This document shows, one piece after another, positions 46,101 through 49,100 of a stretch of DNA of 64,000 nt (positions are counted from its first letter, which is position 1; each line of letters opens with the position of its first letter). Source of the DNA: Escherichia coli. Its GTDB lineage: Bacteria > Pseudomonadota > Gammaproteobacteria > Enterobacterales > Enterobacteriaceae. The position numbers are program-made. The DNA lies in assembly GCF_029227855.1 (NCBI RefSeq), contig NZ_CP074357.1; one strand, given 5' to 3'.

Positions 46101-49100
46101 AACCCAGCTCAGTGGTAAAATCCCTAAATCGGTAAGAGTTTCAAACAATTATGTTGAGTACTCGTTACCGGGCACACTCTCGGCCAAGACCATTTACCGA
46201 AGCGTGTTAGAAGATGAGATGGGCTTTGTTGAATAAATAAGATTTCGTGCGAACGACCCTGGAGCTGGCTGGATTTTCAGGCAATACGCACGCTTTCTGG
46301 CATCCCAGCCTTTGTCATCCTGTTCAACGCACGCACCATGGCCATAGCTTCCGCTACCTGACCATCGTAGTCACGCAGCGTCAGTGAATCTCCCAACAAC
46401 TGCTTCATTCTGTACATTGCCGTTTCCGCTATCGAGCGACGGTTATATTCCGTTGTCCATTTCCACCGTGCATTGCTTCCGCTCAGCCGCTGATTAGCAA
46501 CGGCACGGTTGCGGTCTGCGTACTCACCGGGCCAGTAACCTGCTCCTTTTCGGGGAGGAATAAGCGCGCTGATTTTTTTGCGGCGCAGTTCATCGTGACA
46601 GAGCCGGGTATCGTAAGCCCCGTCTGCCGCGGCTGCCCTGATTTTTCTGTGAGTCTGCCGGATAAGGCCCGGGAAGGCTTCTGAGTCCGTCACATTGTTC
46701 AGCGACAGGTCTGCACAGATGATTTCATGTGTGTTGCTGTCAACTGCCAGATGCAACTTTCGCCATATACGACGGCGTTCTTTGCCGTGTTTTTTGACTT
46801 TCCATTCGCCTTCACCAAAGACCTTCAGCCCGGTGGAATCAATCACCAGATGCGCGATTTCACCCCGGGTGAACGTTTTGAAACTGACATTAACCGACTT
46901 TGCGCGCTTGCTGACACTGGTGTAATCCGGGCAGCGCAACGGAACATTCATCAGTGTAAAAATGGAATCAATAAAACCCTGTGCAGCCCGCAGGGTCAAC
47001 CTGAACACGCGTTTAATGACCAGAACGGTGGTGATGGCGAGATCAGAATAGCGCTGAGGTCTTCCCCGTGATGAAGGCGTTGTCGACTCATACCAGGCCT
47101 GAATAGCTTCATCATCCAGCCAGAAAGTTATGGAGCCACGGTTGATGAGGGCTTTATTGTAGGTGGGCCAGTTGGTGATTTTGAACTTTTGCTTTGCCAC
47201 GGAACGGTCTGCGTTGTCGGGAAGATGCGTGATCTGATCCTTCAACTCAGCAAAAGTTCGATTTATTCAACAAAGCCAAGTCTATCTTTAAAAAAGCTAA
47301 AACAAAAATATAGAGTTAATTAGATTGGTGGCTCAGGTTTATAAAACCTCTCACTAGTGAGGTTTATTTTTTATTTTTGGCTGAGATTAACAGCGTTTTC
47401 CATAAATGTATCAATAACAACCGTAAGAGACTGGCTGGTACCATGGCTATACTCAGGCCAGGGTAAAAAAGGATATGAAGAATACGCCATCAACATGATA
47501 CTGGTTGGGCAACGCCAGTCCGTTGGAACACCTTTACTGTAATGGACAATCATAGCCGGGCGACTACAATCAATATCTCCAGCGTTTTTATCGAGTACGA
47601 AAGTAGCCAGAACGCCGGTGTCCTTCTGGGATACGAAAACAAGGCTGTCAGTAAAAATAAAGGCCATTAAGGAAGAGGCCAGGAAAGCGCCAGTAAATAA
47701 GGACTTCTTCTCTTTCCAAACGCGTCGAGCATATAACCCCATTAGCGCTACCGCTGAAACCATTCCGTACCACTGAGCACCCAAAGAAAAATCTGTTACT
47801 GTTTTAGATGTCATACTTTCATTAATAGTAATCATTGCGACAATGAATGGTGATGCGATTCCAAGTGTTGCTAGGACTATCAGCGATATTTCAGACCGGT
47901 TTTCTTTAGCGGATCCTTTACTTATTGCAGACATTGCTCTGAACATAACGAATGTACTGTTGAGCATCAGAAAACAGCATAAGAGCATGTATAACATTGG
48001 GTTTCCTCAACCTAGAAGTGATGGTTTCCCTGTTATTTTACATAAATTTGACTCAACAGATGCTTTTAAAATCTCGCTTCCTTGAATTTACAAACATATC
48101 AGCACAATTGGCAAACATAAAGGAGCAGCGTCTATCAAAAGTTACTTTTATGATTGGTTGAATACTCATTTTGAAGGCTAAAATCCAAAAAAGTGGATAC
48201 AAAAAGTTACTTTTGCGTCATCCAGATGCACTGCCGCCATTTTGCATTCTGTACGTTGGTTGCTTTCTCACTTGATGTCTCTTTTAACAGGCAAATTATC
48301 ACTTTATCCGACCGGACCTTGTAGGCTGAATCCGTAGAATAAGGCTATAACCTATTCCCGGAGCATCATATGCGTAAAACTCTAATTGGCTGCATGGTTG
48401 CAACTGCCCTTGCTACTGTATCTTCGGCACATGCTCAGGTATTTAGCTACTCATTTACAGATACCAATAAGGCTGTTCGGAATATCAAACCTGCAACACA
48501 AACATATCTTAATCCCGCTGGTGTTTTGACTCTGAACTTGATATCGGGTCTTGATCGGTACGAGCGAGTGACGGTCACACGAGACAGCGATAAAAAGGTT
48601 ATGTATTCCTCCGTCTCGACCAAAACGAGCGTTGCAGATCGTATCGTTGCTGCCGATGGAACAGAATACTATGGAAAGGATATGGTTCTACCGGCGCTCG
48701 GAGAAGGGACCTTTACTGTAGTCAATGAAACTCTGGATATTCGCCAGACTGTAGTGAGCACATCTACTTATCATTTCATCGTTGATACAACTCCTCCACG
48801 CTATAAGAGTATTTATCCGAGTCAAAACGCAGGTTACGACATGGTACTTTCTGGGCCACTTTGGGAGTTGGGCCGAGGCGGTAGTGGCCAGTTTTCTATA
48901 TTTGCAGACGGTATTGAGGATGCTAGTGGAATTGACAAGATCCGTCTTGTCATTAAACGAAGTAATGGTTCTGTGGTCTCCGACAATAACCTGAGTTATG
49001 ACACAGCCAATAAACGTGCGTTCTATCCGTGGATTAAAGATATGAACACCCAGGCTGGCATGCCCTCAAGTGATCTTGATGAAGAATTCACCTTCAATTT

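Follow-up and report, generated by a model that had tools for sequence, protein, structure and literature searches.

A short palindrome, AAAAGT-N-ACTTTT, is a real and selected cis-element that recurs plasmid-wide and is restricted to the backbone, with 46–80 copies on each of the IncHI-type resistance plasmids examined. Judged from its sequence and distribution, it is almost certainly where a plasmid-wide DNA-binding protein docks. We predict that its 11-bp core, AAAGTNACTTT, is bound by a dimeric protein, encoded by the plasmid and specific for this sequence, that acts across the plasmid backbone, most likely an orphan protein of the ParB/KorB type, a tentative prediction to which we give just under an even chance; the assignment of the binder to a ParB-like protein is circumstantial.

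A strict palindrome recurs on IncHI plasmids far above expectation

We analysed a window of 64,000 nucleotides that corresponds to bases 1–64000 of the E. coli IncHI2 record NZ_MZ152088.1, from which the whole-plasmid counts were also taken. The exact 13-mer, AAAAGTNACTTTT, is present nine times in the window, as compared to 0.04 expected from 100 dinucleotide shuffles, none of which reached nine, and this agrees with the initial annotation, which had called the recurrence far above chance. The exact 11-bp core is present 16 times. On whole plasmids the core was found 49 times in IncHI2, 46 times in R27 (IncHI1) and 80 times in a distant Klebsiella IncHI-like plasmid, with an expectation of 0.4–0.7 per plasmid; the enrichment across these three diverged plasmids is 70–145-fold. 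Among the 5-N-5 palindromes on the IncHI2 plasmid the motif ranks first by far (49 versus a mean of 0.36), and it is the top palindrome, by a wide margin, in each of the three plasmids.

One-mismatch variants are ~3-fold enriched and two-mismatch variants are near background, indicating that the site is unusually strict. Similarly, 49 of the 53 occurrences of AAGTNACTT on the whole plasmid extend to the full core, and the window contains the 6-mer arms at 1-bp spacing only, with none at spacers of 0 or 2–7 bp. The extended consensus is gGAAAAGTWACTTTTCc. Farther than ~8 bp from the centre the information content is about zero on either side, which argues for a protein-sized site rather than a repeat element.

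Copies in the window

All of the copies listed by the initial annotation are real and lie at, or within one base of, the positions where it had placed them: the exact 13-mers at 9154–9166, 31666–31678, 34410–34422, 48137–48149 and 48202–48214 were verified, and the copies given as 12285–12295, 56374–56385 and 58597 are 11-bp cores with one imperfect outer base each. The list was, however, incomplete, having missed four 13-mers (1725, 9348, 26304 and 38194) and four cores (5264, 7506, 14359 and 28614). The full set is given below, together with one variant site and the gene next to the tandem pair.

1725–1737: exact 13-mer within the 5′ end of trhU (frameshifted in this record); kept in R27 at 9209
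5264–5274: core copy within the reading frame of rsp (large Ig-like transfer protein); kept in R27 at 12743
7506–7516: core copy within rsp; kept in R27 at 14987, where the central C is replaced by A
9154–9166: exact 13-mer across the 8 bp that separate the htdF stop (9159) from the htdK start (9150)
9348–9360: exact 13-mer within htdF; kept in R27 at 16833 despite flanks that are 65% identical
12285–12295: core copy with one imperfect outer base, where parM and the Z operon diverge
14359–14369: core copy within the third gene of the Z operon; kept in R27 at 22122
26304–26316: exact 13-mer between the genes of a 160-aa protein and htdT, within the AC transfer operon; kept in R27 at 32957
28614–28624: core copy in the first codons of htdO; the sole orthologous position lost in R27 (AAAGTAGCTTT)
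31666–31678: exact 13-mer with a central C, 5′ of trhA, the first gene of the AC operon
34410–34422: exact 13-mer, 110 bp downstream of the replication initiator gene (34532–35407, minus strand)
38194–38206: exact 13-mer, ~30 codons into a 284-aa gene (38105–38959); kept in R27 at 43240
40059–40069: one-mismatch variant AAAGTACCTTT, 81 bp 5′ of the 387-aa ParB-like gene
48137–48149: exact 13-mer AAAAGTTACTTTT, distal member of a tandem pair, 227 bp 5′ of the ATG of the 818-aa Ig-like gene
48202–48214: exact 13-mer AAAAGTTACTTTT, proximal member of the tandem pair, 162 bp 5′ of the ATG at 48370
48370–50826, plus strand: gene of the 818-aa Ig-like domain protein, the presumed target of the tandem pair
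56374–56384: core copy with one imperfect outer base, beyond the 3′ end of the 806-aa Ig-like gene
58598–58608: core copy with one imperfect outer base, within the 806-aa Ig-like gene; the flank aligns with R27 at 56937, where the motif is kept

The members of the tandem pair are spaced 65 bp centre to centre, and the R27 and Klebsiella orthologues of the 818-aa gene also have a motif copy upstream. Upstream of trhA, R27 has one copy, likewise with a central C, and the Klebsiella plasmid has four in the equivalent region; downstream of the rep gene, R27 has a copy at 23 bp and the Klebsiella plasmid seven within 3.4 kb. The AAAGTACCTTT variant has an identical copy at the equivalent place in R27 (45096).

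The motif is enriched between genes, common within them and restricted to the backbone

Eight of the 16 copies in the window are intergenic (9155, 12285, 26305, 31667, 34411, 48138, 48203 and 56374) and eight are intragenic. In R27, 23 of the 46 copies are not fully coding, as compared to 21% expected (p = 1.6e-5). The comparison of intergenic with coding DNA that the initial annotation had proposed as a check yielded densities of 0.62 and 0.16 per kb, respectively, in R27, a 3.9-fold difference, and 41% of the R27 copies are located 1–300 bp 5′ of a start codon versus 25% of random positions (p = 0.01). Copies precede unrelated backbone operons and genes, including the trhA pilin operon, the Ig-like genes, the oriT/trhR region and the ParB-like genes, and several fall at the 3′ ends of genes or within the few bases that separate neighbouring genes of an operon. 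No copy was found in ~83 kb of resistance modules carried by this plasmid, which are its longest stretches free of the motif, nor in 40.6 kb of IncC plasmid DNA or 50 kb of Rts1 DNA. The outcome that the initial annotation had named as refuting its reading, equal frequency in coding DNA, was therefore not obtained.

The initial annotation had placed the palindrome in the promoter regions of otherwise unrelated operons and proposed that it is an operator for a plasmid-wide regulator. The intergenic enrichment and the location 5′ of unrelated backbone operons bear out the first claim in part, but half of the copies are inside genes, and this means that the motif is not a simple promoter operator; what stands of the second claim is a selected cis-element that is plasmid-wide. 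We found no constant distance between the sites and promoter-like hexamers (−10 and −35). A classical promoter operator was rejected, as the sites are not confined to promoter regions and half of them are intragenic and conserved. By analogy with known systems, the pattern of sites fits ParB/KorB-type loading sites better than classical operators.

The motif is under purifying selection

At 23 orthologous positions in IncHI2 and R27 the core is 99.6% identical, as compared to 72% for the flanks, and the motif is retained at 22 of them. Intragenic copies are conserved at synonymous positions between IncHI1 and IncHI2: identity at third codon positions between IncHI2 and R27 is 90% in the motif versus 43.5% in the flanks. 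These results show that the motif is under purifying selection. An identical motif is present in all lineages found, namely IncHI2, IncHI1, p8025, the Klebsiella IncHI-like plasmid, Yersinia, Leclercia-type and Pluralibacter, and all of these carriers are Enterobacterales. In the Pluralibacter contig the motif occurs as a pair. The ParB-like proteins, TrhR, TrhY and HtdA are 28–35% identical between IncHI2 and the Klebsiella plasmid while the motif is unchanged, and because the motif is identical in every lineage while the candidates diverge, covariation with the binder is unusable here. When the paired pattern AAAGTNACTTT-N90-120-AAAGTNACTTT was scanned over 100,000 genomes, the matches listed were from unrelated AT-rich genomes, with one Enterobacterales contig being informative among them. 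We did not find the motif in the literature searched, an earlier mention in subscription literature being possible.

Orphan ParB-like proteins are candidate binders

The plasmid encodes three orphan paralogues of the ParB family, as judged by matches to PF17762, TIGR00180 and phrog_1033, and the candidates have the ParB/KorB fold.

92384–93568 of the IncHI2 record (outside the window): gene of the 394-aa orphan ParB-like protein, the first-choice candidate binder
40150–41313, plus strand: gene of the 387-aa orphan ParB-like protein, with an HTH and the GxxR motif RQGHCR; second-ranked candidate
35884–36939, plus strand: gene of the 351-aa orphan ParB-like protein, a candidate unlikely to be required

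The AlphaFold model of the 394-aa protein has a pLDDT of ~90 over residues 13–254, and a fold search with it retrieved KorB of RK2 as the best match (8qa9, E = 4.5e-8), followed by ParB, Spo0J and Noc. GxxR, the nucleotide-binding motif of the N-terminal domain in ParB-type proteins, is kept in all three paralogues (RQGACR, RQGHCR and RQGHTR) and the canonical GERRxRA box is absent from the candidates, which makes CTP binding uncertain. Copies of the motif precede the 394-aa gene in all six lineages checked, with 1–6 exact copies within 750 bp in each: two in IncHI2, two in R27, three in p8025, six in the Klebsiella plasmid, two in Yersinia and, in the Leclercia-type contig, one together with a one-mismatch copy. 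A possible extended −10 (TGGTATTGT) would put the proximal site of this gene near −57.

The recognition helix of the 394-aa protein (S-E-Q-H-x-R) is nearly invariant among ten sequences with overall identities of 33–67%. Since the S-x-E/Q-H-x-R signature is also found in an orphan ParB homologue of IncC, of which 40 kb lack the motif, helix conservation is not specific proof. As the Klebsiella plasmid carries the motif but no orthologue of the 351-aa paralogue, this protein is not likely to be needed. The 387-aa gene, the 394-aa gene and trhR are each found in ~2400–2500 plasmid records with the same lineage structure, and these matching phyletic profiles do not separate the three.

The sites resemble those of ParB-type regulatory clamps

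KorB, a CTP-dependent sliding clamp, is loaded onto DNA at odd palindromes of 13 bp and silences promoters at distances of up to 1.5 kb (PMC11790492). Like the IncHI motif, its operator OB is an odd palindrome of ~13 bp with a free central base (OB core TTTAGCGGCTAAA), near-identical copies of both are spread backbone-wide, at promoters, distant from promoters and within genes, and KorB is a plasmid-encoded binder of the ParB family that the model of the 394-aa candidate matches best. RK2 has about a dozen OB sites, as compared to 46–80 copies per IncHI plasmid. The IncHI candidates also differ from KorB in being orphans, with no adjoining ParA (IncC) or KorA-like partner identified, and in sharing ~17% identity with it.

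The ParB-like clamp BisD of ICEclc uses intragenic odd palindromes, spreads far and co-activates transfer genes; it requires a second activator, BisC, to switch these genes on, and its GxxR is essential (PMC12409273). The bisS sites, similar to many of the IncHI copies, are odd palindromes with a central N (GAGCTATCCCCnGGGGATAGCTC) that lie inside genes, and IncHI also has a two-protein activator, TrhR/TrhY. Unlike IncHI, ICEclc has two bisS sites, and BisD has a C-terminal activator domain. VirB, which is ParB-like and CTP-dependent, recognises inverted repeats 5′ of many promoters and relieves H-NS silencing on the Shigella plasmid (PMC10770331). That virulence plasmid is large, AT-rich, H-NS-silenced and thermoregulated, and IncHI expression is likewise H-NS/Hha-silenced and temperature-dependent (PMC7366339). 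However, virS differs in sequence and is present in far fewer copies, and the temperature response is opposite, IncHI transfer being on at 25 °C. The AcaCD/SetCD boxes of IncA/C and SXT/R391, which are related MOBH/MPF-F elements, are sets of sites for a master activator that likewise serve transfer and backbone genes plasmid-wide. These boxes are promoter-proximal, degenerate, non-palindromic or weakly symmetric and number ~15–20, whereas the IncHI motif is a strict palindrome, half intragenic and absent from the IncC region examined.

By analogy, the motif may join KorB-OB, BisD-bisS and VirB-virS as a new member of the class. In the mechanism that we propose, an orphan ParB/KorB-type protein, the 394-aa protein in the first place and the 387-aa protein in the second, would bind the 46–80 palindromes and, as do KorB at OB, BisD at bisS and VirB at virS, load as a nucleotide-dependent clamp at intergenic and intragenic sites alike. 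The loaded clamp would act over a distance on promoters nearby, by repression, co-activation or counteracting H-NS silencing, and the protein may control its own gene via the copies immediately 5′ of it.

Alternative explanations

The motif might instead be a box recognised by the activators TrhR and TrhY, or by HtdA, which antagonises them, in the IncHI conjugation and temperature circuit; we consider this unlikely. Mutation of htdA affects 139 of 181 expressed R27 genes, those not responding including transposition, tet, cit, muc and parA/parB genes (PMC7366339); we found no exact copy beneath the annotated tet, tcu and umu/muc genes of R27 and no motif copy upstream of parA/parB, a correspondence that also fits the ParB/KorB-type reading proposed above. 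The circuit covers most backbone genes, with mostly accessory exceptions, and the motif is likewise backbone-only; the HtdA-responsive set and the motif both span the backbone and leave out accessory DNA, as any backbone-specific element would. Also in favour of a TrhR/TrhY box, every lineage has copies 5′ of the AC operon (trhA) and in the oriT region that separates the H operon from the R operon; IncHI2 and the Klebsiella plasmid have copies 5′ of the Z operon as well.

Dependence on TrhR/TrhY is measured by default with the F-operon promoter, which is functional when fused at the chromosomal attB site (PMC7366339). A TrhR/TrhY box would be expected at all of the dependent promoters (F, H, AC and Z). 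With up to two mismatches allowed, however, the F promoter of IncHI2 and that of the Klebsiella plasmid gave no site, and that of R27 a single two-mismatch match, which is not conserved; the lack of the motif at this promoter argues against these proteins as the binder. The motif is also missing from the R27 Z promoter and from the AN promoters of R27 and IncHI2. Pfam and NCBIfam recognise no DNA-binding domain in TrhR, TrhY or HtdA, and conserved intragenic copies would be unusual in an activator box. For HtdA, an action on the TrhR/TrhY proteins themselves is reported, and no cis-element for the HtdA–TrhR/TrhY response is reported in the same study (PMC7366339). TrhY has a conserved CxxC-13-CPxC four-cysteine zinc ribbon; it gave no PDB sequence match, and its AlphaFold model (pLDDT 50) was too poor for a search for an FlhC/BisC-like fold.

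Of similarly low probability is a non-ParB-like plasmid repressor that has escaped recognition, such as a small HTH or RHH protein, with the palindrome serving as a classical operator at many promoters. Numerous conserved genes of the backbone lack a functional assignment, and the 3.9-fold intergenic density and the excess of copies 1–300 bp upstream of genes are consistent with such a repressor; the intragenic half of the copies, which is selected, and the variable distance to promoter-like hexamers are not, and no specific candidate was found.

A DNA-binding protein of the Enterobacterales host, recruited by IncHI plasmids, is quite improbable as the reader of the motif. A conserved host factor would easily explain why the motif is invariant though the lineages' own proteins have fallen to ~30% identity, and every carrier found belongs to Enterobacterales. 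The GTNAC centre resembles the reported preference of the YbaB/EbfC family and the GT-N-AC of GntR-type operators. However, copies cluster 5′ of the plasmid's ParB-like genes in every lineage, and the IncC and Rts1 DNA that lacks the motif comes from the same or related hosts. We know of no E. coli regulator with this site, and none was found in the literature searched.

Equally doubtful is a structural role, in which the motif would provide dispersed centromere-like or compaction sites for a ParB-like protein, comparable to the SopB sites scattered over the phage-plasmid N15, in segregation or the organisation of transfer DNA. The ParB fold of the candidates, the many copies within genes or at gene 3′ ends and the dispersed parS-like palindrome that the IncC plasmid also carries are in line with this, but the candidates are orphans with no adjoining ParA, two modules on the plasmid already provide for partition, and a link to transcription is suggested by the intergenic bias and by the placement of copies 5′ of operons. 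Classical ParABS was rejected on the same orphan status and on the genuine parA-parB module having a 249-bp × 14 array with no motif copy; a centromere of the Par1 ParB was rejected in view of the 3–4 kb repeat region 5′ of parA, an array of its own without the motif.

Finally, it is extremely unlikely that the motif arose by chance or from base composition, or that it is a mobile repeat, a set of replication iterons or a target of restriction/modification. These readings are effectively refuted by the shuffles (9–80 copies observed versus 0.04–0.7 expected) and by orthologous conservation, even though genes of several orphan DNA methyltransferases are present on the plasmid: targets of restriction are as a rule avoided, whereas the motif is enriched and conserved at orthologous positions; a REP/MITE element would not have flanks without information or a 1-nt spacer, which cannot form a hairpin loop; and the iterons of R27 differ in core (RepHI1A, AAATGCTTTTC) and have a period of 43–44 bp. 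Also rejected were Tus/Ter, as Ter sites are asymmetric and 50–80 fork barriers would be absurd, and a recombinase site, for which the 1-bp spacer is too short.

Implications for IncHI plasmids

IncHI plasmids (R27, R478, and IncHI2 with mcr-1 and ESBL) rank among the major carriers of multidrug resistance genes in Salmonella, E. coli, Enterobacter and Klebsiella. The motif offers a concrete and cheap handle for tests, consisting of one oligonucleotide, three candidate ParB-like genes and the Ig-like and trhA promoters; a 25-bp duplex with the motif is cgGAAAAGTTACTTTTCcg. IncHI transfer is thermoregulated via H-NS/Hha and HtdA–TrhR/TrhY, with most backbone genes responding (PMC7366339). It is possible, though on balance rather unlikely, that these plasmids have an unrecognised control layer of the ParB-CTPase type, in which an orphan KorB-like clamp at the 46–80 palindromes would set the transcription of the transfer, Ig-like adhesin and maintenance genes of the backbone, either through silencing at long range or through opposing H-NS/Hha. 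If so, this layer would be the missing cis/trans link behind the plasmid-wide, temperature-dependent HtdA–TrhR/TrhY response, and no replicon would be known with a denser array of regulatory loading sites of the ParB type. Should the binder be a KorB-like clamp, the class of ParB-type long-range regulators would extend to a second, clinically important plasmid family, and the protein would be one target, the loss of which could upset gene expression plasmid-wide.

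A strict odd palindrome recurs across the IncHI2 plasmid

The sequence belongs to a conjugative IncHI2 plasmid of E. coli (NZ_MZ152088.1; 267,429 bp), the window being bases 1-64000. Its content is as follows.

Tra2 transfer region: trhU/W/F, rsp, htdK-F-A, the Z operon and trhA-trhC
Further content: both partition modules, two replication initiator genes, two Ig-like protein genes and several IS elements

The genes for 818- and 806-aa products are annotated as encoding Ig-like domain proteins. Compared with R27 (IncHI1), trhU, trhW, trhF and the large rsp are each split into several ORFs (1-8476), which are real pseudogenes or else the product of frameshifts or stops that sequencing errors introduced into the record. 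ISKpn26 (10302-11282) is inserted between htdA and parM, at the site where an R27 225-aa gene adjoining parM is missing, and IS100 (32149-33950) separates the rep gene from the trhA upstream region.

All of the sites that the initial annotation had listed for the palindrome AAAAGT-N-ACTTTT are present in the window, and we found eight overlooked copies (1725, 5264, 7506, 9348, 14359, 26304, 28614 and 38194). The exact 13-mer AAAAGTNACTTTT occurs nine times in the window, versus 0.04 expected from shuffles, and the 11-mer core AAAGTNACTTT 16 times; the whole plasmid holds 24 and 49, respectively. The motif is by a wide margin the top 5-N-5 palindrome on the plasmid (49 copies versus a mean of 0.36), its arms are separated by 1 bp only, and 49 of 53 AAGTNACTT occurrences plasmid-wide extend to the 11-mer. 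Since the information in the symmetrised logo (gGAAAAGTWACTTTTCc) reaches no further than ~8 bp from the centre on each side, the motif is sized like a protein-binding site rather than a repeat element. Relative to dinucleotide shuffles, exact copies are enriched 70- to 145-fold, one-mismatch variants ~3-fold and two-mismatch variants ~1.2-fold; the motif is thus an unusually strict site.

The sites are conserved across IncHI-type plasmids

R27 carries 46 cores, and the Klebsiella IncHI-like plasmid pMTY12137, with proteins 22-79% identical to those of IncHI2, carries 80. Shorter pieces, from p8025 (a Salmonella plasmid typed IncHI1B/IncP), Yersinia intermedia, a Leclercia-type plasmid and Pluralibacter contigs, hold one copy per 2.4-4.3 kb. 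The motif is absent from both resistance regions of the IncHI2 plasmid (45 kb and 38 kb), from 40.6 kb of an IncC plasmid and from 50 kb of Rts1. Nine contigs of the Bacillota MAG OH_HBB_241 (L065-L073) each have two AAAGTNACTTT copies, the paired match spanning exactly 118 bp; these belong to an unrelated dispersed repeat in which the motif occurs by chance.

In the 23 IncHI2/R27 alignments that cover a site, identity is 99.6% over the ten core bases and 72% in the flanks; the motif is kept at 22 of these sites, the central base being free to vary. At coding copies, third codon positions are 90% identical within the motif versus 43.5% in the flanks, which indicates selection on the DNA sequence itself, inside genes too.

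Intergenic enrichment is clear but partial

Placement was tested on R27, where the annotation is clean. The motif is not equally frequent in coding DNA: 23 of the 46 copies lie at least partly outside coding sequence (21% expected, p = 1.6e-5), with densities of 0.62 per kb in intergenic and 0.16 per kb in coding DNA, the latter still well above chance (~0.4 copies expected over the whole 180 kb). Positions 1-300 bp upstream of a start codon hold 41% of copies versus 25% of random positions (p = 0.01). Of the 16 window copies, eight are intergenic. The proposal of an operator in promoter regions fits no more than half of the copies. The region upstream of trhA has 1, 1 and 4 copies across lineages; the Ig-like protein genes, the oriT/trhR region, the stretch just downstream of rep and the ParB-like genes are also recurrent targets.

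Candidate binding proteins

In addition to the genuine Par1 ParB, the plasmid encodes three orphan ParB-family proteins.

Window 35884-36939: orphan ParB-like protein, 351 aa
Window 40150-41313: orphan ParB-like protein, 387 aa
Record 92384-93568 (28384-29568 of L003, the record beyond the window): orphan ParB-like protein, 394 aa

These paralogues share 26-32% mutual identity, and all three retain a ParB-type HTH as well as a GxxR motif. For the 394-aa protein, AlphaFold gave a model that is confident across residues 13-254 and whose top solved-structure match is KorB of RK2 (8qa9, E = 4.5e-8, target-normalised TM-score 0.66); ParB, Spo0J and Noc come next. Exact motif copies lie just upstream of the 394-aa gene in every lineage (2, 2, 3, 6, 2, and 1 plus a variant), and the protein's recognition helix, S-E-Q-H-x-R, is nearly invariant among sequences 33-67% identical overall. 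The 387-aa family shows no such helix conservation; a one-mismatch variant upstream of its gene is conserved in IncHI2 and R27. The Klebsiella plasmid has no orthologue of the 351-aa paralogue. As a caveat, the helix signature of the 394-aa protein also occurs in an IncC orphan ParB homologue, and the IncC DNA examined is without the motif. In an R27 transcriptome study, two 'partition genes' (R0042, R0153) were induced under all conjugation-promoting conditions.

Since all plasmid candidates have diverged to ~30% identity while the motif is wholly unchanged, the binder could possibly be a conserved host protein instead.

Several points argue against the motif being the site of the TrhR/TrhY circuit. 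The F-operon promoter, the standard TrhR/TrhY-dependent reporter, functions as a lacZ fusion at chromosomal attB (PMC7366339). In IncHI2 and the Klebsiella plasmid this promoter contains nothing within two mismatches of the motif, and in R27 a single, non-conserved two-mismatch match; the fragment in the published fusion may differ in extent from the region scanned, so this argument is an inference. The motif is also missing from the Z promoter of R27 and from the AN promoters of both R27 and IncHI2, and no DNA-binding domain is recognisable in TrhR, TrhY or HtdA. TrhY (L003 46199-46711) has a C-terminal zinc ribbon, CxxC-13-CPxC, conserved in all four lineages, which recalls the four-cysteine site of FlhC-type activators, a relationship unconfirmed by sequence and structure searches.

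The motif is neither the Par1 centromere nor the RepHI1A iterons: 14 tandem copies of a 249-bp unit (17827-21325; 73% matches), presumably the Par1 centromere or incompatibility array, contain no copy, and the iteron core differs. The 249-bp array occupies a 4.3-kb ORF-free gap upstream of parA; gaps of ~3 kb occur there in R27 and the Klebsiella plasmid. The presumed RepHI1A iterons of R27 (L008) are 43-44-bp and 21-bp repeat arrays with core AAATGCTTTTC flanking the gene (38377-39006 and 40417-40491), one of which includes the near-motif AAAGGCACTTT. The oriT region carries three to four direct and inverted copies of AAAGTGACCCT / AGGGTCACTTT (L003 about 44968-45048, record 108968-109048; R27 108436-108576), distinct from the palindrome with one half-site in common, which may be a relaxosome binding site.

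A proposed ParB/KorB-type site set

We propose that a dimeric ParB/KorB-type protein would load at the palindromes and could then act at a distance on neighbouring promoters, its own included. Precedents are KorB-OB, in which a CTP-dependent sliding clamp loads at 13-bp odd palindromes and silences over distances of up to 1.5 kb (PMC11790492); BisD-bisS, with intragenic odd palindromes, long-range spreading and transfer genes co-activated with a second protein (PMC12409273); and VirB-virS, an anti-silencing system on an H-NS-repressed, thermoregulated plasmid (PMC10770331). By analogy, the IncHI mode may be KorB-, BisD- or VirB-like.

In the IncC plasmid pNDM-M21015 (L018, 290-27460), an 18-bp parS-like palindrome, ACTTTCACATGTGAAAGT, is repeated at seven dispersed positions, all intergenic by annotation, one of them immediately ahead of the parA and KorB-domain genes. 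On a Pseudomonas aeruginosa plasmid (L144, 16776-20850), the odd palindrome TTTTCAC-N-GTGAAAA occurs four to five times, clustered round parA/parB and an adjoining orphan ParB-like gene. Such ParB-type palindromes thus look common on large conjugative plasmids.

The searchable, openly readable literature yielded no paper printing the motif or linking IncHI plasmids with a KorB-like regulator. We classify the motif copies as a candidate plasmid-wide ParB/KorB-type site set, of a kind already known, and unusual in its very high copy number, extreme strictness and invariance throughout the plasmid family.
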